Both the position numbers and the translations under genes were made by a program. From an uncultured Thiosulfatimonas sp. (GTDB lineage: Bacteria > Pseudomonadota > Gammaproteobacteria > Thiomicrospirales > Thiomicrospiraceae): a stretch of DNA of 24,000 bases. Shown in pieces: positions 6,736-23,660 of the stretch (the first letter of the stretch is position 1; each line of letters opens with the position of its first letter). The DNA is taken from the NCBI GenBank assembly GCA_964547865.1, contig CAZJPO010000001.1:14749-38748 (forward strand). Reading direction: 5' to 3'. The notes under the pieces are model-generated. The model ran no database searches. It had not been told where the DNA came from and was given only the letters and a program-made list of their open reading frames with translations.

Positions 6736-8106
6736 ATGTCTGTATTAGTGCTGGATAAAAACAAGAAACCGTTGATGCCTTGTTCTGAGAAAAGAGCACG
6801 ATTGCTGTTATCTCGTGGACGAGCAGTGGTTCATCTCCTTTATCCATTCACCATCCGGATTAAAGATTTGAAGCAATCAGACTGTTTGTTGCAATCGGTG
6901 CATTTAAAGCTAGATCCAGGTTCTAAAACCACGGGATTAGCTTTAGTTCTAAGTTCTGATATTGAATTAAAAACTTTATTTTTAGCCAATATCGAACACA
7001 AAGGTTTTGCAATCTCTGAGAGTTTAACTCAACGCAGAGCATTTAGACGACGCAGAAGAAACAAGCTTTGGCATCGTAAAGCACGATTTGATAATCGGGT
7101 TAAGCCTAAAGGTTGGCTACCGCCCTCTTTAAGACACAGAGTGGATACGACATTGGCGTGGGTTAAAAAGCTATCTCGACTTGTACCTGTTACTGATATT
7201 GGGTTTGAGCGAGTTAAGTTTGATATGCAGAAGATGGCTAACGGTGATATTAGTGGTGTTGAGTATCAGCAAGGCACTTTATTTGGGTATGAGGTTAAAG
7301 AGTACCTTTTGGAAAAACATCGCCACACCTGTGCTTATTGCAGTGGGTTGAGCGGTGATAACCGCTTAGAGGTAGAACATACTCACCCCAAGTCGAAAGG
7401 TGGAGGCAATAGCGTTAAGAACTTGGTACTCGCTTGCAGAAGTTGCAATGAGTCAAAAGACAATCTGTTATTGGTGGATTGGAAAAATAGGTTGGGTAAC
7501 AGCAAGTTAGATACCGCCCGTAAATCAGGCGTTGAGAAAGTCCTTAAAGGCAAATGGTCTGGTTTAAAAGATGCCGCATCGGTTAACGCCACTCGTAATG
7601 AGTTGCTAAAACAACTGTTAATGTTTGCAGGTGAGCACTTATCCGTTTACACAGGTACAGGTGCTATGACTAAGTTTAACCGCAAACAGCAAGGGATTCC
7701 TAAAGACCACTGCTTAGATGCGTTATGTGTGGGTGAAGTATCAAAACCAATCACTCAATGGCAACAGCCTGTATTGCGCATTAAATGCACGGGCAGAGGT
7801 ATTTATAAAAGAACTCGCTTGGACAAGTACGGTTTTCCAAGAGGTTACTTGATGCGTCAAAAAGCAGTTTATGGGTTTCAAACGGGTGACATGGTTAAAG
7901 CGAATGTCACTAACGGAAAGAAAGCTGGATTGCATGTTGGGCGTGTAGCGATTAGAGCTACTGGCAGTTTTAACATTCAAACCACAACAGGTTTGGTACA
8001 AGGGATTAGTCATAATTATTGCACATTAATTCAGCGTGGCAGTGGTTATGGCTTTGGTTTTACAAAGATAGCAACCAACTATGGAGAAGAGAGAAAGGCC
8101 GCTTAA
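6736..8106 (+). CDS. iscB: IscB, OMEGA-class RNA-guided DNA endonuclease (split RuvC with inserted HNH)
   Basis: GGAG lies 5 nt upstream. PLMP motif at aa 12-15 (nt 6769-6780). RuvC-I LDPGSKTTG (D60, nt 6913-6915). Arg-rich bridge helix RRAFRRRRRNKLWHRKARF. RuvC-II GFERV (E158). HNH CAYC...EVEHTHPKSKGG...NLVLACRSCNESK (nt about 7330-7455). RuvC-III KDHCLDALC (H325, D328). All catalytic positions appear intact. Confidence 0.88.
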   Translation: MSVLVLDKNKKPLMPCSEKRARLLLSRGRAVVHLLYPFTIRIKDLKQSDCLLQSVHLKLDPGSKTTGLALVLSSDIELKTLFLANIEHKGFAISESLTQRRAFRRRRRNKLWHRKARFDNRVKPKGWLPPSLRHRVDTTLAWVKKLSRLVPVTDIGFERVKFDMQKMANGDISGVEYQQGTLFGYEVKEYLLEKHRHTCAYCSGLSGDNRLEVEHTHPKSKGGGNSVKNLVLACRSCNESKDNLLLVDWKNRLGNSKLDTARKSGVEKVLKGKWSGLKDAASVNATRNELLKQLLMFAGEHLSVYTGTGAMTKFNRKQQGIPKDHCLDALCVGEVSKPITQWQQPVLRIKCTGRGIYKRTRLDKYGFPRGYLMRQKAVYGFQTGDMVKANVTNGKKAGLHVGRVAIRATGSFNIQTTTGLVQGISHNYCTLIQRGSGYGFGFTKIATNYGEERKAA

Positions 8107-16288: not shown

Positions 16289-16304
16289 GTAGCCTATGGG
16301 CTAC
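16289..16304. promoter_or_regulatory. Perfect inverted repeat GTAGCC-TATG-GGCTAC; candidate toxin-antitoxin (TA) operator
   Basis: 6-bp arms with a 4-nt spacer, immediately 5' of the preferred toxin start. TACAAT (16302-16307) overlaps the right arm as a possible -10. Confidence 0.35.
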
Positions 16305-16313
16305 AATGTACAA

Positions 16314-16634
16314 ATGAAATACAAAGTTCTCACTTCTACCCACTTTGATAAATGGCTTTTAAAGCAGAAAGATCGTCAAGCTGTAAGAGCCATTGCAATG
16401 CGAATTGCTAGAGCCGAACAGGGGAATTTTGGTGATTCCGAACCAGTTGGTGAAGGTGTCAGTGAGATGCGTATTTTCATAGGCAAGGGCTATCGAGTTT
16501 ACTATGCCGTTCAAGGCGACACAGTTGTTCTGCTCTTAAACGGCGGTATCAAAAGTAATAAAAAACAGCAACAAGAAGACATCTCGAAAGCAAAGCAGAT
16601 CCTAAAAGAGATCGGGGGAACCAATTATGACTGA
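16314..16634 (+). CDS. Type II toxin, RelE/ParE superfamily, HigB / Gp49-like addiction module killer protein (TIGR02683-like)
   Basis: FDKWL...GNFGDSEPVGEGVSEMRIFIGKGYRVYY...LLLNGGIKS..QQEDISKAK matches the recalled family signature. Alternative start at 16296. 8-nt overlap with the antitoxin. Confidence 0.8.
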   Translation: MKYKVLTSTHFDKWLLKQKDRQAVRAIAMRIARAEQGNFGDSEPVGEGVSEMRIFIGKGYRVYYAVQGDTVVLLLNGGIKSNKKQQQEDISKAKQILKEIGGTNYD

Positions 16635-16908
16635 AAAAACCAAACCATTTAATCCGTTTGATTACTTTGAAACACAAGAAGAAATCAACGCTTACTTGGA
16701 GGAATGTTTTAAAGATGAAGACCCGAATGTATTCGTCAATGCACTGGGGCACTTGGCGAAACATCACGGAATATCTGAGGTGTCAAAAGCCACTGGCTTA
16801 AACCGTGAAAGTCTTTACAAAACCTTCAGCGGTAAAGTCCAGCCTAAATGGGATACTATCGCAAGAGTCATGCGTGCATTGCACGTCGATCTAACTGTGG
16901 CTGCTTAA
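16627..16908 (+). CDS. Cognate HTH antitoxin (HI1420 / TIGR02684-like addiction module antidote protein)
   Basis: FNPFDYFETQEEINAYLEE...ATGLNRESLYKTFSG...PKWDTIARVMRALHVDL matches the recalled family pattern. It is the downstream partner in toxin-first (HigBA-like) order. Confidence 0.8.
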   Translation: MTEKTKPFNPFDYFETQEEINAYLEECFKDEDPNVFVNALGHLAKHHGISEVSKATGLNRESLYKTFSGKVQPKWDTIARVMRALHVDLTVAA

Positions 16909-17402
16909 AAATACCGGTCATTAATCCCACCATCGCCATGTTCTCCATGCAATGGATCTATTCGCCCCATAGGGGCTGTAAAAGAATGATTTCGACTATC
17001 ATCATTCGCTTCTTTAAATGTCTTATTGTCACCATCAAAAACCCGAACGAATACTTTAAAAACGCCAACAACAAGGTAAATAGCCAGAAAAACGACAAAC
17101 CCATAAATACGGGCTATCCAATTCTTTGAATGGATCATCTTCTTCAAAGAAGTTTCACTGTTATCTCTAGTAACCAGCAAAATCGTCAAACTGGAGAACA
17201 ATGAGATGAACAAGTATAAATTTGAAGTTGAACTGAAAAACTCAAATTCTCCGTATCTGGCCAAGCTGATAAAAGGCTCAACCACCACTAAACCAATACC
17301 AAACCACGCCAGTCCGCGCAACCATGATTTTCCCTTGTCACGAAAACCGTCAGGACCAACAATTGACCCTCTAATTGCTTTAGCTTTTTCCATTAGACTC
17401 AT
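16905..17402 (-). CDS. Hypothetical membrane protein (about 3 TM helices)
   Basis: GGAG lies 5 nt upstream of the ATG. Three hydrophobic helices. The stop codon overlaps the antitoxin stop convergently (TTAA at 16905-16908). No family recognised. Confidence 0.6.
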   Translation of the reverse strand: MSLMEKAKAIRGSIVGPDGFRDKGKSWLRGLAWFGIGLVVVEPFISLARYGEFEFFSSTSNLYLFISLFSSLTILLVTRDNSETSLKKMIHSKNWIARIYGFVVFLAIYLVVGVFKVFVRVFDGDNKTFKEANDDSRNHSFTAPMGRIDPLHGEHGDGGINDRYF

Positions 17403-17506: not shown

Positions 17507-17546
17507 CAAAAAAAAGGCCGCAAACATCAAACTGATATTGGCGGCC
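17507..17546 (-). terminator. Rho-independent terminator ending the four-gene minus-strand operon
   Basis: On the minus strand: AGGCCGC...GCGGCCT stem (17514-17520 / 17540-17546; 19-nt loop) followed by T8 (the plus-strand A-run 17507-17514), about 70 nt after the stop of the 69-aa gene. Confidence 0.7.
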
Positions 17547-17617
17547 TAAACTTACTTACTACTACCTTCGGAGGAAATCAATCGAAGATGTTCGTATCTT
17601 CACACAAGCTTCAATAC

Positions 17618-17827
17618 TTACAACCCCTCAATTTCATCTAAATTCAAAAGTTCGGGATTAATCTTAGAGAGCTTCTCTTTTTTTACTCGATAGGTAGCTG
17701 CTAACTTTCCGAACTGCAAAACATTTACCAGCACAGTAGTTTTGGCCACTTTAACAACCTTTCCCCTTTGCAACCCGCGATTGCTATCGTATTCAACCCA
17801 ATCATCAACCTTTAGATCATCGGCCAT
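17618..17827 (-). CDS. Small SH3/KOW/Tudor-like protein (69 aa), function unknown
   Basis: 11-nt overlap with the upstream gene. LKVDDWVEYDSNRGLQRGKVVKV resembles small beta-barrel (Hva1-Tudor/KOW-like) proteins. This resemblance is from memory only. Confidence 0.55.
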   Translation of the reverse strand: MADDLKVDDWVEYDSNRGLQRGKVVKVAKTTVLVNVLQFGKLAATYRVKKEKLSKINPELLNLDEIEGL

Positions 17828-18317
17828 TCTTTAACTCCATTTTTATTGCTCTCGCGCCTTCAACATAATTAGCAACCATTTGATAAAGTGATTTTGGGCT
17901 TTCTGGAACTGAGACTGTTTTTGTTTCTTTCCCAGTAATCACCATCAAATCGCGTACTTTATACCCGGCACTTTTCACAGCTAAACACGCTGACAAGCCT
18001 TGAATAACATCCGATTCCAAAACAGGGCCATTTCTGGACTTATACTCTACAACCGTCACTTTTCCGTTCTTGCTATAGATTGCATCTGGTTTTCCAAGCA
18101 CTCGATACTCTTGATTGAAAAAGGGTTTAGTATCCACCCCCTCATCAATCCAAACGAGCTTTCCCAATTCATCAAGCTCTTCACGCCCAGTTGTTTTTTT
18201 GCCTTCTCTTCTCGAATTAAGATAGAAAGCCAGAATTGCAACAGCGGCAATGAAGACAACCCAAATATCGGTAAAGTCTTTGAAAAAACCTACTAATCCT
18301 GAAAATAAATCCCACAT
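17817..18317 (-). CDS. Membrane-anchored PD-(D/E)xK (Cas4/RecB-like) nuclease-fold protein
   Basis: I prefer the ATG at 18317 (AGGTGG then 5 nt) over the track GTG at 18326, which lies inside the Shine-Dalgarno sequence. One N-terminal TM helix. Motif LGKPD(x12)EYK (D78, E91, K93 in my numbering), followed by a Q-containing helix (DVIQGLSA). Confidence 0.6.
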   Translation of the reverse strand: MWDLFSGLVGFFKDFTDIWVVFIAAVAILAFYLNSRREGKKTTGREELDELGKLVWIDEGVDTKPFFNQEYRVLGKPDAIYSKNGKVTVVEYKSRNGPVLESDVIQGLSACLAVKSAGYKVRDLMVITGKETKTVSVPESPKSLYQMVANYVEGARAIKMELKNGR

Positions 18318-18342
18318 TGGAACCACCTTTCTCTTTAATTCT

Positions 18343-18753
18343 CTAATACTTCGTCAAACTTACAACACAGTCCACAATGGAACGAGCCAAACCATCTAGG
18401 AGCTTGTTTTTGCGGCACAGGCTGACCAGAAAAGGAGAGGTTACGTAATAGACAGACACCATCCATTTTCCAAACCGGTTAGGCATCAAAACCCGATCTC
18501 TAAAAGAGCGCAGTTGATTTGTTCTTGGATCATCAATTCCATATAGGTGGGATGCAATAAAGCAACGCTTGTCTTGTTGTCCATTAATAAGAGCGTCGTT
18601 GAACGCTTCGTGTTTTTGGGATCCTTTTTCCAGTGCAGCTTTACGCTGCTCTGAAACCTCGACCCCGTTGTATTTATCCTCAAGCAGCTTAGGATTTCGT
18701 GCATACAAGCCAACATCTGAAGCAGAGATCCAATCTGTTTTTTTATTTTTCAT
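18343..18753 (-). CDS. Hypothetical protein with CFI-box-like C-terminal region (CFIASHLYG...LRSFRDRVL...VYYVTSP)
   Basis: ATGA overlap with the upstream gene, and AAGGA as Shine-Dalgarno. The C-terminal motif resembles the recalled CFIATAAYG...LR.FRD..L...YY..SP module. The N-terminus (WISASDVGLYARNP) resembles the first motif of Cas4/YqaJ-type nucleases. Confidence 0.5.
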   Translation of the reverse strand: MKNKKTDWISASDVGLYARNPKLLEDKYNGVEVSEQRKAALEKGSQKHEAFNDALINGQQDKRCFIASHLYGIDDPRTNQLRSFRDRVLMPNRFGKWMVSVYYVTSPFLVSLCRKNKLLDGLARSIVDCVVSLTKY

Positions 18754-20150
18754 ATTTCATCCTTCATATTGGCCAAGAGAAAAGCGTCAATGCTTACGCC
18801 TTCATGATCGTCTCGATAGACTTGTACTGGCCGGTCTTCACCACCGTGGCAAAAATACACTAAACTCTCTAATCCGTCACGGAAACTACTTAAATCCGTC
18901 ACACATCTGCTTAGTGAACTTCTAATCGTTTTATCAATACGGGCAGAGTAGTCGTCATTCAACATTGGATTTGCAGCAATATTAATCATTACCAAGCCGT
19001 TATCCTTCAGTCTCGATTTCACAAGATGAAAAAACTCGGTCGTTGCGGTGTGCGCCGGAACCATCACTCCAGAACTAAAGAGATCAATCACTATGACATC
19101 TACCAACTTTTCTCTGGCTAGCAAGTAGGCTCTCGCATCTTCACTAACAGCGTCACCGAACACTTTGTGGCCAAGGAAATGATTTTCAGCCACTGACAAA
19201 AGTTTTTCGTCAATATCGACATAAGTGAATTTATGCTTATGCAACTCTTCGTCAGTCGATAACGTGAATCCACCGGCACCAAGCACGAGCACCTCTGATG
19301 ACTCCATTTTCTTGAGGGCTGCTCTCATTGTTTCCACGTATGGCCAAGCTCCATTTTTATCATCCGTATAGGATGCAAACTGGTCATTAACCAACATTGC
19401 CTTTCCTCCAGCTTCATTTCCGTATTGGATTATTTTGATATTAGCGTAGGGTGTGGTTACTTGAAATAGCTCACGTTCGACTGCAACATTAAGAACAGCC
19501 GCAATACTGAGGAAGGTCACGGACATTGCAACCCCGATCCAATGACTTCGATTTCTAATCTCTATGGCTAGAAGAAGAGATAAAAACAGGACTGTACTAT
19601 TTAGCAGAATAGAGCTACCTACACCGAATAAAGTCAGAAAGACAAGCGCGGTAATCAGGCCGCCAAAGACATTGCCAAGCGTTGATAATGCGGTTAGATT
19701 TCCCGTTGCTTCGCTTTTGCTTGTTTCAGATTTTGCAGTATGCAGAAGCAGAGGTACCGTTTGGGCAAGAATAAAAACCAATGGAGCCAGAATAAGGCAA
19801 CTAAATACAAACAAATGAAACAGCGGGTGGCCAATAACTGGCATTCCGTTTGTTAAACTATCCAGAACGGAAAATAAGACATCCACAACCGGGTAGCTGA
19901 GACCAATACCAAAGATCCCAATCGCTATAACGAGATTTCTCACCAGAATATCGCGGTAACTTCCCGTTTGTGATTTGCCTCCCCTCCAATAACCAAGAGC
20001 CAAAGCCGCCAAAAAGGTACTGATAACGATGCTTGTGACTAAGATTGAAGACCCAACATAGCCAGTGACCTGTCGTATGGCCAGCATCTGTAGAGCAGCG
20101 GAAGCTAACCCTTCAAGCAAGAGTATTGCAGCAACAAGATTTCGATTCAT
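18750..20150 (-). CDS. Polytopic membrane domain fused to a spermidine synthase-like (class I SAM-dependent / aminopropyltransferase fold) domain
   Basis: The first ~215 aa hold about 7 hydrophobic helices. The C-terminal half has VLVLGAGGF (GxGxG), YVDIDEKLL and DVIVIDLF, typical of PABS/SpeE-like folds. Proteins of this architecture are, as I recall, usually annotated as fused MFS/spermidine synthase. Confidence 0.7.
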   Translation of the reverse strand: MNRNLVAAILLLEGLASAALQMLAIRQVTGYVGSSILVTSIVISTFLAALALGYWRGGKSQTGSYRDILVRNLVIAIGIFGIGLSYPVVDVLFSVLDSLTNGMPVIGHPLFHLFVFSCLILAPLVFILAQTVPLLLHTAKSETSKSEATGNLTALSTLGNVFGGLITALVFLTLFGVGSSILLNSTVLFLSLLLAIEIRNRSHWIGVAMSVTFLSIAAVLNVAVERELFQVTTPYANIKIIQYGNEAGGKAMLVNDQFASYTDDKNGAWPYVETMRAALKKMESSEVLVLGAGGFTLSTDEELHKHKFTYVDIDEKLLSVAENHFLGHKVFGDAVSEDARAYLLAREKLVDVIVIDLFSSGVMVPAHTATTEFFHLVKSRLKDNGLVMINIAANPMLNDDYSARIDKTIRSSLSRCVTDLSSFRDGLESLVYFCHGGEDRPVQVYRDDHEGVSIDAFLLANMKDEI

Positions 20151-20530
20151 TAATTTCAGCCGTTGAAAAATTGAAGCAGATTGTATTCCTTTCTGGACTT
20201 ATTAATAACAAACAAAAGGTCGCAGACTTGTGACCTAATGAAATTCACTTGATTCTTGATTTGATTACGTTTTTGTAATAAATTAATGCTATTCCATTTA
20301 GTTTCTTGTCTGATGATTTTTTTCATCAGCTTGAATGACCAGCCCAGAGCCAATTCCTAGCTGGTCGCATCTGCGGATGTTTGGCTCATCAACTACCTCC
20401 GGGTTCAACGCCCAATCTCTTGGCTTCACGCCTTTTAAACTTCATAAACTTCACACACCACAACTTTTTCAAAGTTGCGTTTTGCTGTGCTCGTTTATTT
20501 ATTTACTACTCCAATTTAAAGGAAACTATC

Positions 20531-21061
20531 ATGGAAAATACTACTCTAGCTGGAAATGTTGGAAATGTTCGCTCGAACAACGTAAACACTTCAAACGGAC
20601 AAAAGTTCGTTCTCAATTTCTCTTTGGCTGTTAAAACCAAAAAGAAAGACACTCAAGGAAAAACAATCACCAAATGGTATGAATGTGCATTGTGGGGCAA
20701 TTACGCTCAAACAATGTCTCAGTACATCCAGAAAGGTTCTTCTGTCACTGTAATCGGTACCACTGATGCGGAAATCTACACTCCTCAAGGTGGACAACCG
20801 CAGATCAAGCACACTTGCGATGTTGACAACCTTTTCTTGGCCAGCTCTGGTAATGGTAACAACCAAAATCAGAACAACGCCAACTTCCAAGGAAACCAAA
20901 ACCAAAATGGCAATGGTCAATTCCAACAAAATCAGCAGCAAGGTAATTTCCAACAACAAGGAAACTACCAGCAGCAGAATAATCAAGGTTTTCAACAAAA
21001 CCAAAACCAGCAACAAAATCAGAATTTTGGAATGAACCAAGACGACGATTTACCGTATTAA
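20531..21061 (+). CDS. ssb: Single-stranded DNA-binding protein with an N/Q-rich linker
   Basis: AAGGAAA lies upstream of the ATG at 20531. OB-fold-like N-terminus (LAGNVGN...KWYECALWGN...KGSSVTVIG). Acidic tip DDDLPY resembles the canonical DDDIPF. The upstream extension to 20381 lacks coding character. Confidence 0.85.
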   Translation: MENTTLAGNVGNVRSNNVNTSNGQKFVLNFSLAVKTKKKDTQGKTITKWYECALWGNYAQTMSQYIQKGSSVTVIGTTDAEIYTPQGGQPQIKHTCDVDNLFLASSGNGNNQNQNNANFQGNQNQNGNGQFQQNQQQGNFQQQGNYQQQNNQGFQQNQNQQQNQNFGMNQDDDLPY

Positions 21062-21090
21062 CGGTCGCTAATCAACTCACCTCGTTAAGA

Positions 21091-21124
21091 ACAGAACTGA
21101 ATTTATTCAGTTCTGTTTTTTTTT
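21091..21124 (+). terminator. Rho-independent terminator after ssb
   Basis: Perfect 11-bp stem ACAGAACTGAA / TTCAGTTCTGT (21091-21101 / 21106-21116), TTTA loop, then T8 (21117-21124). Confidence 0.85.
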
Positions 21125-21151
21125 GCTTATTTACTACTGAAGGAGCTAATC

Positions 21152-22114
21152 ATGGCTTATCAAAACAACCAACGTGCGCCGATGCCGGCTGTCGTTAAAC
21201 AAACCATCAGTTCAGCAGCTGCCAGATTTGAGAATTCCATTCTGGAGTTTGATAAAGAGCAGATCTACGCAATTGATGCCCTAAGCAAAAACAGCTATTC
21301 GCTGAAGATTGCTCAACAAAACCCGGCATCTCTGAAAATGGCACTCTTTAATTTGGCTGCCGTTGGATTGAGTCTCAACCCGGTGACAAAGTTTGCCTAT
21401 CTGATTCCACGTCGGATTGGTAATGAACAGAGAATTATTCTCGACATTAGCTATCAAGGCTTCATCGAGATTGCTATCAATGCTGGAGCCATAAAATCTT
21501 GCTCAGTCACGCTCGTTAGAGAAGGCGATTTGAGTTCAGGATTTCAATGGATCGACAACTACACCCCCCCAAAGAATCCACCTAATCCTTTTATCAAGGA
21601 CAAAGGTGCGATTGTTGGTGGTTACTGTCAAGCGCGTATGCCTGACAACTCATTCTTGTTGTTTCCTATGACAATCGAAGAGGTTTACAAGCGTCGTGAT
21701 TCTTCCGAAATGGTGAAGAAAAACGGTGTTTCAGGACCTTGGTTAGATTGGGAAGAAGAAATGATTAAGAAAACAATCGTGCGTTCCGCAGCGAAATGGT
21801 GGCCAAACAATGGCTCAACTAATTTGGCAGAAGCGCAGCGAACACTTAACGAAGATGCTGGAGAAGGATTGTCTGAGGAAGATCGTAACATTGTTCACGA
21901 TGTTCCAGTGCAACTGCCACCACCACCGGCGGCCAATGATTTGCCTCAGCAAATCGTTGACTATGTTGCCAAAGCAGTTAATCGAGCAGAACAGGTTTCT
22001 GCTTGGTCAGCCGCTGAAGAACACTTCACAAGCAAGTATTCGGATTTAAACCTACGCTCCTATGCGCTTTCAGAGCTTAAAGCACGAAAAGACGCAATGA
22101 AGCAATCAGCCTAA
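21152..22114 (+). CDS. recT: RecT-family single-strand annealing recombinase
   Basis: GAAGGAG lies upstream. NPASLKMALFNLAAVGLSLNP...AYLIPRR...ILDISYQGFIEIAINAGAI...REGD matches the recalled RecT core pattern. It lies between ssb and a YqaJ-type exonuclease. Confidence 0.8.
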   Translation: MAYQNNQRAPMPAVVKQTISSAAARFENSILEFDKEQIYAIDALSKNSYSLKIAQQNPASLKMALFNLAAVGLSLNPVTKFAYLIPRRIGNEQRIILDISYQGFIEIAINAGAIKSCSVTLVREGDLSSGFQWIDNYTPPKNPPNPFIKDKGAIVGGYCQARMPDNSFLLFPMTIEEVYKRRDSSEMVKKNGVSGPWLDWEEEMIKKTIVRSAAKWWPNNGSTNLAEAQRTLNEDAGEGLSEEDRNIVHDVPVQLPPPPAANDLPQQIVDYVAKAVNRAEQVSAWSAAEEHFTSKYSDLNLRSYALSELKARKDAMKQSA

Positions 22115-22127
22115 AAGGGAAACACTC

Positions 22128-22538
22128 ATGACTTTTGTTATGGATCACGAAGCGGGCTATAAAGGCCGCTACGAATACCACCAAGAAAACGAAGATGACT
22201 ACTATGGCACTTGCACTTTCACGACTAATGAAATGGTGGGTGCATTAAAAGAAATTCTTAAAGATTTACCATTTACACCAATTTTGGTACAGGGCGAATA
22301 CGACGGGATTCCTAAGACACCAACTTTGTGCTTTTCACTAGAAGAAGTGAAAAATGCAGTGGTTGAGTTAAACGAGGACAACGATAAGGTTCATCAACAA
22401 TTCCCTAACTTTAAAGATGAAATAGTTGCTTGCGATTCCATTGAGGAAATTCAAAGCCATTCAGCTTTAAAAGAGTGGGATTACGAATCTCTCATTCGTT
22501 TCTTTGAGCTAAAAACATCAAATAGAGTTATTTTTTAA
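22128..22538 (+). CDS. Highly acidic hypothetical protein (136 aa)
   Basis: AAGGGAAA lies upstream. By my count 27 D/E against 12 K/R. No family recognised. It is embedded between recT and the exonuclease. Confidence 0.6.
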   Translation: MTFVMDHEAGYKGRYEYHQENEDDYYGTCTFTTNEMVGALKEILKDLPFTPILVQGEYDGIPKTPTLCFSLEEVKNAVVELNEDNDKVHQQFPNFKDEIVACDSIEEIQSHSALKEWDYESLIRFFELKTSNRVIF

Positions 22539-22634
22539 CTTATTTTTTTAAACACCACCCAGACGGGAAATACACACCCGTCGGGTCAGTGTATTTCCTT
22601 GATGGGTTCACTACTACATCTCTGGAGATACACA

Positions 22635-23660
22635 ATGACAACTACTACAAACAACCAGTTAAAGACAACAACCATTATCAACGTAACGCAAGGAACGGAT
22701 GAATGGCTGCAATGGCGTTCAAAGGGAATTTCCGCTACGGATATTCCAATTATTATGGGTTTAAGCCCATATAAAACGCCATATCGTCTTTGGTTAGAAA
22801 AGACCGGTCGAGCAAACGCTGACGACCTGTCAAACAATCCTAACGTGCAACGCGGAAACCGATTGGAACCAAAAGCACGATCTTACTGGGAGGATAAGGA
22901 TTCGGAAATTTTACTTCCAATCTGCGCCCAATATGATCCTGCCCCTATGCTCAGAGCATCGCTTGATGGTTTGAGCATGGAAGGAAAACCTTACGAGCTA
23001 AAAGCACCTCATGAATCCACTTTCTCTGAAATAGAGGAAAAGGGTACCGATGCTGACGCTTATAAACTTTACGAACTTCAAGTCAAAACTCAATGTGTTG
23101 TTGTCGGCTCTGATTCTGGAAAGCTTTGCTTCTACATGGAAGACGAAAGAACGATGGAATTTGAGATTGAACTTCAACCAGAGGACTTGGATAACATCGT
23201 CACTGCGGCAATTGAGTTTTGGAATCTTATTGAAACCGATACTCCACCAGCTCTTGACCCGGAAAAAGACTTTTATATTCCCCAATCTGGAGAAGATGAG
23301 TTCCGTTGGCAAAGTTATTCAGAATTGTTTTCTGAAAATAAAGCCAAAATTGACGCACTGAAAGCCCAAATTGCTCCACTCGAAAATGCTCAAAAAGAGC
23401 TTCAAGAAGCAATGATTCAAATGATGGGAGATTTTCAAAATGCTGATTATGGCGGTTTGAAAGTCACTCGATTTGAACGTAAAGGCACCATTGACTATTC
23501 AAAGTTCATTAAAACTTTGGAGGTGGATGAACAAACGCTAGAAGGCTACCGCAAGAAGTCCAGCTGGCAATCAAGAGTTACTTTGTCTGAAAAAGATAAG
23601 GTGATTAATGAAGAAGTAATTGGTAATGAGTCTTCACCTACTCAAGCCGGTTATTTCTAA
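22635..23660 (+). CDS. YqaJ-type (lambda Exo-like, PD-(D/E)xK) recombination exonuclease with a C-terminal extension
   Basis: I prefer the ATG at 22635 (GGAGA 6 nt upstream) over the track TTG at 22599. GTDEWLQWRSKGISATDIPIIMGLSPYKTPYRLWLEKTG is the typical YqaJ N-terminal signature. SLDG...YELK fits the catalytic core. Confidence 0.8.
   Translation: MTTTTNNQLKTTTIINVTQGTDEWLQWRSKGISATDIPIIMGLSPYKTPYRLWLEKTGRANADDLSNNPNVQRGNRLEPKARSYWEDKDSEILLPICAQYDPAPMLRASLDGLSMEGKPYELKAPHESTFSEIEEKGTDADAYKLYELQVKTQCVVVGSDSGKLCFYMEDERTMEFEIELQPEDLDNIVTAAIEFWNLIETDTPPALDPEKDFYIPQSGEDEFRWQSYSELFSENKAKIDALKAQIAPLENAQKELQEAMIQMMGDFQNADYGGLKVTRFERKGTIDYSKFIKTLEVDEQTLEGYRKKSSWQSRVTLSEKDKVINEEVIGNESSPTQAGYF

Follow-up and report, generated by a model that had tools for sequence, protein, structure and literature searches.

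Cas4 and related nucleases of the RecB family (SSO0001, Pcal_0546, type I-C Cas4, MGME1 and AddB/AdnAB) are iron-staple enzymes built on a RecB-like core with motifs I-III and a conserved Q. In Cas4, the iron-sulfur (Fe-S) cluster is bound through one N-terminal and three C-terminal cysteines, and the metal-site histidine follows the N-terminal cysteine by ~30 residues, as in SSO0001 (Cys32/His62) and Pcal_0546 (Cys64/His94, a spacing of 30) (PMC4176176). Solo Cas4 proteins, including viral Cas4, Methanosarcina Solo-Cas4 and the Argonaute-associated ACE1, lie outside CRISPR loci, are often borne on mobile elements, and are single soluble polypeptides. Here we describe an operon of four minus-strand genes, g1 to g4, in a 24,000-nucleotide stretch of DNA from an uncultured Thiosulfatimonas sp. 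(contig CAZJPO010000001.1), the whole of which is called the window below. Comparison of g2 and g3 with their relatives shows that these two genes encode what are predicted to be the two halves of one Cas4/RecB-family PD-(D/E)xK nuclease.

The g2-g3 pair shares the RecB-like core, the three motifs and the Q with the iron-staple nucleases, and most members of its family also have the same 1+3 cysteine arrangement and Cys-His spacing. Here, however, two polypeptides share the domain, each of them predicted to be membrane-anchored, the motif I His being supplied in trans on g2, and an invariant Ala stands in place of the Tyr of the QhXXY motif. The window's own pair departs further from Cas4, in that all four cysteines are gone. 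In contrast to the solo Cas4 proteins and ACE1, the pair consists of two proteins with predicted membrane anchors and is confined to conjugative elements. We found no paper describing a Cas4-like nuclease, membrane-tethered or split, from conjugative elements, a survey of leading regions makes no mention of one (PMC11541004), and the gene pair is apparently undescribed. The explanation we consider probable for the operon as a whole is a split membrane-anchored nuclease with g1 as its partner, forming a module of conjugative elements.

Other genes of conjugative elements that lie near the end of a transfer operon or near traG and encode envelope-located products include nuc of pKM101/R64 and traS/eex. 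Nuc is a periplasmic PLD-family enzyme, and Eex and TraS are small non-enzymatic membrane proteins; they share traG-side placement and envelope location with the operon genes but are not known to be related to them in sequence or fold. A PADLOC scan of the operon region matched no system: g2 and g4 had no match, g3 matched only generic Cas4 and DruK models, and g1 matched only mad2 (1e-8), within the Rossmann fold (g1 271-396). In MADS, MAD6, MAD7 and MAD8 are mandatory and MAD2 is a DNA N6-methyltransferase (bioRxiv 10.1101/2023.03.30.534895). MADS was rejected as a candidate, as the mad2 match is confined to the Rossmann fold and the five operon-region proteins gave no other MADS match.

A Cas4-type nuclease domain divided between g2 and g3

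The g3 protein matches PADLOC Cas4 models at 1e-7, which is sub-threshold, and covers these profiles only from position 35, 51 or 62 on, depending on the model. Against TIGR00372 it reaches 26.8 bits with a cutoff of 65; with this score, no cas genes in ORF (open reading frame) scans of the window, no repeat array in the window, and a domain that is not a single polypeptide, the locus falls outside CRISPR-associated Cas4. The AlphaFold2 (AF2) model of g3 (predicted local distance difference test score, pLDDT, 93.6) consists of a long N-terminal helix (residues 4-41) followed by a PD-(D/E)xK core. Its best PDB matches in Foldseek were MGME1, type I-C Cas4, ACE1, Cas4-Cas1, AdnAB and SSO0001, in alignments that span only 100-137 columns of targets ~190-880 residues long. 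Motifs II (D) and III (ExK) lie in this core, and over 133 sequences D81, E94, K96 and Q109 show either no variation or at least 90% conservation, whereas the motif I His is not on g3. This numbering starts from a GTG; counted from the ATG preferred here, D81/E94/K96 become D78/E91/K93. Since positive residues follow the transmembrane (TM) helix, the nuclease core is placed in the cytoplasm.

At its N-terminus, g2 (WISASDVGLYARNPKLL...EKGSQKHE) looks like the opening helices of Cas4, which g3 does not have. Residues 1-60 hold the iron-staple position and motif I (G44/H48). The G-x3-H pattern is invariant in 120/120 g2 proteins and the Cys is kept in more than 90%, with a Cys-to-His spacing of 28 residues in relatives (FCPH and similar). 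When the 120 proteins were scanned singly against 5027 PADLOC models, the only recurrent families were PD-(D/E)xK nucleases (DruK N-terminus for 27 members, Cas4 for 22). The C-terminal ~69 residues (64-130) match NF041770 CFI-box-CTERM at 70 bits (cutoff 40; 1e-19), and we found no paper describing CFI-box proteins. All g2-type proteins are ~135-145 aa long. In a remote pair (L112, 4013-4770, and L113; L numbers denote the loci compared), the g2 analogue has 84 aa and carries the Cas4 N-terminal module followed by a classical C-terminal TM helix, without a CFI-box. This anchor swap argues that the CFI-box is the membrane anchor of g2.

If the two proteins make up one domain, they should cover complementary parts of a Cas4 profile. 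In L010, g3 alone aligned to TIGR00372 over positions 65-179 (34.9 bits) and g2 alone over 2-50 (12.5 bits), and an artificial chimera of the g2 N-terminus and the g3 C-terminus aligned over 2-179 with 47.6 bits, so that the scores are additive. The L013 chimera rose to 53.9 bits from 44.5 for g3 alone, covering 2-178, and the window's own chimera gained less, from 29.2 to 32.4 bits (PDLC01250). An exhaustive search returned 326 g3-type clusters, 173 of them at E <=1e-10; nearly all of the full-length ones are ~160-200 aa long. No fused g2-g3 protein occurs among these and the 120 g2-type clusters; where matches are longer, the added length consists of further TM segments or of an unrelated domain fused at the C-terminus, not of a g2-type module.

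The cysteines are divided in the same way. The distant pairs examined have one Cys in g2 and a CxxCx5C triad at the end of g3, with L029 as the sole exception, and the triad is kept in 124 of 128 full-length g3-family representatives. In the window, L005 and L019, which form one subclade (g1 identity at least 64%), the Cys of g2 has been lost along with the triad of g3; in the window, g2 reads YARNPK at the Cys position and g3 ends without the triad. Cas4 Cys-to-Ala mutants can stay active (PMC4176176), which makes a cluster-less derivative like the window's version plausible. Homologues of g4 were found only in L001-L007 and L019, the cluster-less subclade, and g4 has no match in Pfam, NCBIfam, PADLOC or PHROG. 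The g4 protein may substitute for the lost Fe-S staple, a suggestion that rests on a single evolutionary event.

In the mechanism we propose, the active site would be composite: g2 would supply the His, g3 would supply the Asp, Glu and Lys, and the two would likewise have shared an Fe-S staple ancestrally. With such a composite metal site, neither g2 nor g3 is expected to be active alone. The nuclease would form only where its anchored halves come together on the cytoplasmic side of the inner membrane, and tethering would confine it to DNA that reaches the membrane. The g1 protein would be a clade-specific third partner, translationally coupled to g2.

The predicted membrane enzyme encoded by g1

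The g1 protein matches NCBIfam NF037959, the fused MFS/spermidine synthase family (112.5 bits, cutoff 40; 2e-32), for whose function we found no paper, and Pfam Spermine_synth at 4e-9. Its AF2 model (pLDDT 93.7; predicted template modelling score 0.87) has helices over residues 3-228 followed by a SpeE fold, and the best Foldseek matches are the Thermus SpeE structures 1uir and 3anx (4e-8). Scores for the SpeE equivalogs TIGR00417 (37.7 vs 249.55 bits) and PRK00811 (45.1 vs 260) fall well below cutoff, and the motif reads GAGGF, so that it lacks the GGG(D/E)G acidic residue to which the aminopropyl group of decarboxylated S-adenosylmethionine (dcSAM) binds. These equivalog scores and the missing acidic residue ruled out that g1 is a true spermidine synthase SpeE.

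The rest of the pocket is conserved. G291, G293, R340, the ribose-binding D312 and D356, at the catalytic Asp position, are invariant across 119 g1 homologues, and D338 is nearly so; the ribose-binding, adenine-binding and catalytic Asp are thus all retained. Judged by these residues, the SpeE-like domain appears catalytically competent, with an intact nucleotide pocket of the S-adenosylmethionine (SAM)/dcSAM type. The dcSAM-selecting acidic residue is gone, and g1 belongs to NF037959, not to SpeE. Two further residues, C416 and C434 (window ~18905-18903 and 18851-18849), are each present in 118/119 homologues, with one Tyr exception per position. The pair fits a disulfide or a metal site and bears on a periplasmic placement of the SpeE-like domain.

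The architecture and invariant residues of g1 are those of the chromosomal NF037959 members. Unlike that family, the g1 clade (identity at least 44%) is coupled to the split nuclease on conjugative elements. Homologues at <=40% identity mostly adjoin housekeeping genes (ETF, SHMT, RNase R, FtsH, TldD), and g1 was therefore rejected as a general conjugation gene. Two of the homologues that lack g2 and g3 lie inside conjugation clusters, one between TrbI and the coupling protein (also L063 of a 41-locus set of such homologues) and one after TraG_N and RepA. The fused MFS/spermidine-synthase family has been recruited by conjugative elements more than once.

Individual loci illustrate these settings. 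In L016 (7825-9207) and L017 (3959-5341), a g1-type gene of 38% identity lies within a Dot/Icm-like DotI-DotH-TrbI...coupling-protein transfer operon, without g2 or g3. In L018, an MPF_G element, the g1-type gene (35% identity) comes after TraG_N and RepA_C.

Distribution and candidate roles

The window itself carries the backbone of an MPF_G conjugative element of the PFGI-1/ICEclc class. Genes scoring above cutoff are TraD, TIGR03747, 03745, 03750, 03746, 03749, 03752, 03751, the traC_PFL_4706 ATPase, 03756 and 03755, and TraG_N is assigned by Pfam on an identical contig. The four genes occur together only in the window's own subclade. The trio g1-g2-g3, in the same order and with overlapping ORFs, was found in L005, L008-L015 and L019, whose hosts are Marinobacter, the Alkalimarinus alittae chromosome, and metagenome-assembled genomes of Oceanospirillaceae and Thiotrichaceae. 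In a metagenome scan, g2 and g3 lay directly downstream in 34 of the 39 loci with g1 at least 44% identical; three further loci end at a contig edge, one of them with an IS21 inserted between g1 and g2. Neither g2 nor g3 was present in any of 41 loci with g1 at <=40% identity. The trio is carried by seven genome-derived loci (six from a scan of genome contigs, plus L015), by plasmids of three genera and by a chromosome. The plasmids are Vibrio tubiashii p123, with a window-like layout, Microbulbifer THAF38 and five Marinobacter plasmids.

The trio is usually oriented divergently to an ssb-recT-yqaJ-AAA_5-DUF3150-VWA block. True cargo, comprising toxin-antitoxin (TA) pairs, insertion sequences (IS), type I restriction-modification (RM) and RND efflux genes, differs between loci on the side facing traG and in some of them on either flank. 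Trio identities (g1 45-49%, g2 35-45%, g3 42-46%) are similar to those of the backbone (recT 35-40%, yqaJ 43-46%, TIGR03755 48%, TraU 42%, TraG_N 30-36%). With divergence about like that of the backbone and a constant place beside ssb-recT-exo, the trio does not behave as freely exchangeable cargo. V. tubiashii p123 (L109, 59.8-84 kb), which carries the closest complete trio, has separate cargo ~20 kb away from it, made up of a WYL regulator, a complete BREX-1 system and a RecB-like/TrlF ATPase pair.

The pair also occurs without g1. On Aeromonas MOBH plasmids it lies between traG and ssb, and on Comamonadaceae MPF_F plasmids it follows traF-traH-traG, together with an M48 protease, Fic/VbhA and a zeta toxin. 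Thioalkalivibrio pTK9001 (L107, 6974-8224) has the order g2-DUF4326-g3-Dam-Dcm, with an orphan Dam and Dcm, and L112 carries the pair within a series of small ORFs, next to ArdC and CsrA. Xanthomonas MOBH plasmids have a g2-like ORF ~2 kb from mobI, next to an ORF that is not g3-like. On plasmids, g2-type matches were found in 72 records, a minority of them CFI-box only, and g3-type matches, at tblastn sensitivity, in 27. The searches show that the g2-g3 pair is the widespread core, a gene pair of conjugative plasmids and integrative and conjugative elements (ICEs), and that the trio is a long-standing accessory module of one MPF_G family.

These results change the picture given by the original prediction, which was made from the sequence alone. 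It had taken the four genes as one unit: outside the subclade the quartet does not co-occur, g4 being confined to it, while the trio does, in one element family and in the 34 loci above. It had also taken the CFI-box protein and the nuclease for a separate adaptor and effector, and they are better read as two halves of one enzyme. Finally, it had placed the genes in the cargo slot of an ICE and proposed a candidate defence or membrane-effector system, combining an enzyme or sensor with a membrane-tethered nuclease and small adaptors. As a rival explanation, this would be a self-contained and exchangeable defence against phages or plasmids. Several observations agree with that view, as the traG-ssb interval gathers TA, RM, IS and efflux cargo, the nuclease-like effector suits it, the missing match to any known system would allow for novelty, and the L044 trio has a WYL/WCX regulator, DUF3584 and a Metallophos gene as neighbors. 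We nevertheless judge it unlikely. The quartet is not conserved, g1-type enzymes are mostly chromosomal housekeeping genes, trio divergence resembles that of backbone genes, and all cases examined in detail lie on conjugative elements or plasmids. A set of 50,697 phage records contained no g3 and one CFI-box-only match to g2, IMG/VR viral contigs yielded one weak g1 relative and neither pair nor trio, and g1-g4 have no PHROG match. A generic anti-phage function is thus not indicated; what still stands of the proposed defence role is defence or exclusion at the membrane, as a possibility.

The position of the genes also bears on a second alternative, in which the nuclease processes the element's own DNA together with SSB (single-stranded DNA-binding protein), RecT and the lambda-Exo-like enzyme, with trimming or resection of transferred or recombining DNA at the membrane while the element moves or becomes established. 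In most loci that include this flank, the trio and ssb-recT-yqaJ point away from each other, the Aeromonas pair adjoins ssb, and ArdC, the orphan Dam/Dcm and mobI are establishment-type neighbors; in addition, the closest structural relatives, MGME1, AdnAB and Cas4, process single-stranded DNA ends or flaps. The ssb-recT block already has its own exonuclease, YqaJ, however, and the pair lacks a nearby recT or exo in pALIDE201, pTK9001 and L112. The trio is flanked by cargo instead of ssb-recT in L044 and in L057, where this cargo is for fatty-acid metabolism, and membrane tethering has no evident purpose in recombination. We regard own-DNA processing as somewhat unlikely, though less so than the cargo reading.

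The same neighbors (ssb, ArdC, orphan methylases and mobI) are leading- or establishment-type genes, and they raise a third alternative, that a Cas4 homologue interferes early after entry with host CRISPR adaptation or another host nuclease pathway, as has been suggested for solo Cas4 of viruses. Anti-defence genes are enriched in leading regions (PMC11541004), and one report links a phage-encoded Cas4-like protein to altered spacer acquisition (PMC4283603). Against this, the anchoring of both halves would be left unexplained, the window shows neither cas1/cas2 mimicry nor a CRISPR array, and the leading-region placement itself depends on circumstantial adjacency to ssb, mobI, ArdC and the orphan Dam/Dcm. 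We consider an anti-defence role improbable.

A number of observations weigh against a split, anchored nuclease with a g1 partner. Compared with the PDB, a sequence profile of the chimeras recovered no Cas4, and g2 alone gives weak matches to Cas4 (E 0.025 to 7e-4). In L029 (11400-12327) the g2 Cys is replaced by Tyr while the g3 triad is retained, the only such locus seen, and the joint loss of cysteines in the window's subclade is one evolutionary event. Membrane insertion of the CFI-box is itself a prediction, drawn from the anchor swap. The topology of g1 is ambiguous: the AF2 model has a single continuous helix over 145-195, implying six TM helices and a cytoplasmic domain, whereas positive-inside counts and C416/C434 fit seven TM helices and a periplasmic domain.

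Taken furthest, such observations would mean that there is no joint system, with g2 and g3 being unrelated neighbors or broken Cas4 remnants and g1 merely making polyamines; the individually weak g2-Cas4 matches, the widespread housekeeping homologues of g1 and L024/L025, the two of the 39 loci that keep g1 without g2-g3, would agree with this. The conservation data largely refute it, and we hold it to be very improbable. Gene order is strict, with overlapping or coupled ORFs, in 34/39 loci and across beta- and gammaproteobacterial plasmids, ratios of nonsynonymous to synonymous substitution (dN/dS) are 0.05-0.10, and the motif I His is invariant. The profile coverage of the two proteins is complementary, and the anchor has been swapped independently.

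For the split nuclease, the role that we tentatively favor is exclusion or defence, in which the tethered enzyme would cut DNA entering at the inner membrane from competing conjugative elements or phages. Restriction at the membrane would spare the chromosome. Against it, the 5' end of conjugative DNA is capped by relaxase on entry, and a 5'-3' exonuclease could not attack such an end. Ranked by our own inferred estimate, exclusion or defence comes first, followed by own-DNA processing, cargo anti-phage defence and anti-defence. A bolder form, which we put forward as speculation, is that g2-g3 represents a new class of immunity or exclusion device, an obligate heterodimeric Cas4-type nuclease that would cut only DNA crossing the inner membrane (that of competing plasmids, ICEs or pilus-dependent phages), with the SpeE-like g1 of the marine clade providing a small-molecule or modification step by which the nuclease is gated or self is marked.

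Operon layout, surroundings and significance

The four ORFs were confirmed in the sequence with three coupling signals and a terminator (Table 1). The g1 stop and g2 start overlap as ATGA (18753-18750), the g2 TAG (18345-18343) is followed by a 25-nt gap to the g3 ATG, and g3 and g4 overlap by 11 nt (17817-17827). The GTG at 18326, given as the g3 start in a mechanical ORF list, falls within the Shine-Dalgarno sequence, and gene callers also chose the ATG on identical metagenomic contigs. The terminator folds at -19.7 kcal/mol (z = -4.5; 0/200 shuffles as stable) and was overlooked by a simple consensus scan because of an internal mismatch. Relative to the 90%-identical L005, dN/dS is 0.078 for g1, 0.048 for g2, 0.095 for g3 and 0.038 for g4, so all four are functional coding genes under purifying selection. 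A promoter scan found no consensus sigma-70 site on the minus strand of the g1-ssb intergenic region, and a search there for structure like that of a single-stranded DNA promoter found modest single-strand structure (z = -2.0 and -2.7).

Table 1. Operon features and neighboring genes, in window coordinates.
Feature	Position	Strand	Description
g1	20150-18750	minus	466 aa, polytopic membrane protein with C-terminal SpeE-fold domain
g2	18753-18343	minus	136 aa, predicted Cas4 N-terminal module (residues 1-60) and CFI-box-CTERM (64-130)
Shine-Dalgarno AGGTGG	18328-18323	minus	5 nt 5' of g3 ATG; read from sequence
g3	18317-17817	minus	166 aa from ATG; predicted N-terminal TM helix and Cas4/RecB nuclease core
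g4	17827-17618	minus	69 aa, no family match
Intrinsic terminator	17507-17547	minus	hairpin and T8, ends operon
g1-ssb intergenic region	20151-20527	divergent	promoters for both presumed
ssb, recT, small ORF, YqaJ/lambda-exonuclease gene	20528-23660	plus	divergent neighbors of trio in most related loci that include the flank
ssb	20528-21061	plus	SSB
HigB/HigA-like pair	16296-16908	plus	upstrm_HI1419/dnstrm_HI1420, directly after traG
Membrane protein gene	16905-17402	minus	165 aa, polytopic, just past operon terminator
iscB	6736-8106	plus	456 aa, IscB RNA-guided endonuclease

In these respects the original prediction was accurate. It had described one tightly coupled operon with the ATGA overlap, the AGGTGG-led restart, the 11-nt overlap and the terminator, and all of these are present. 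Its four domain guesses were judged correct, the families found being NF037959 for g1, NF041770 for g2 and Cas4-like PD-(D/E)xK for g3; g4 has no family match. It recognized no named system, as borne out by PADLOC, which gave only the Rossmann-confined mad2 match and sub-threshold Cas4. It also placed the operon correctly, between traG and ssb and beside a HigBA-type TA pair.

Several neighboring genes are of interest in their own right. The HigB/HigA-like pair is present in identical contigs and missing from more distant relatives, which marks it as genuine variable cargo. The 165-aa membrane protein sits after traG, where other elements carry entry-exclusion genes; it has a weak KwaA-like match (E 0.006) and is not conserved in L005. 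The SSB has a long Q/N-rich low-complexity linker ahead of its acidic tip, DDDLPY. The IscB endonuclease (NF040563, 7e-112) is encoded between the TIGR03752 and TIGR03751 genes of the type IV secretion operon, and its position suggests an IS200/605-type insertion in the transfer region. An Rfam scan of the window returned no RNA, such as an omega RNA, at threshold, a tRNA scan found none, and near-identical DNA was not found in plasmids.

Public annotation lists g1-g3 as three separate products, a 'fused MFS/spermidine synthase', a 'CFI-box-CTERM domain-containing protein' and a 'PD-(D/E)XK nuclease family protein'. Reading g2 and g3 as one split nuclease gives a testable biochemical model for a gene pair carried by dozens of conjugative plasmids and ICEs, including plasmids of clinical Aeromonas and of plant-pathogenic Xanthomonas (in Xanthomonas as a g2-like ORF only). 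In this nuclease family it would be unusual for two polypeptides to share an active site and an Fe-S staple, and such sharing suggests that assembly at the membrane controls the nuclease. For CFI-box domains and the fused MFS/spermidine-synthase family, the operon would also offer the first setting in which to place their function. If its role is exclusion, defence or establishment, the pair would bear on how conjugative elements compete and spread, along with the resistance genes they carry.

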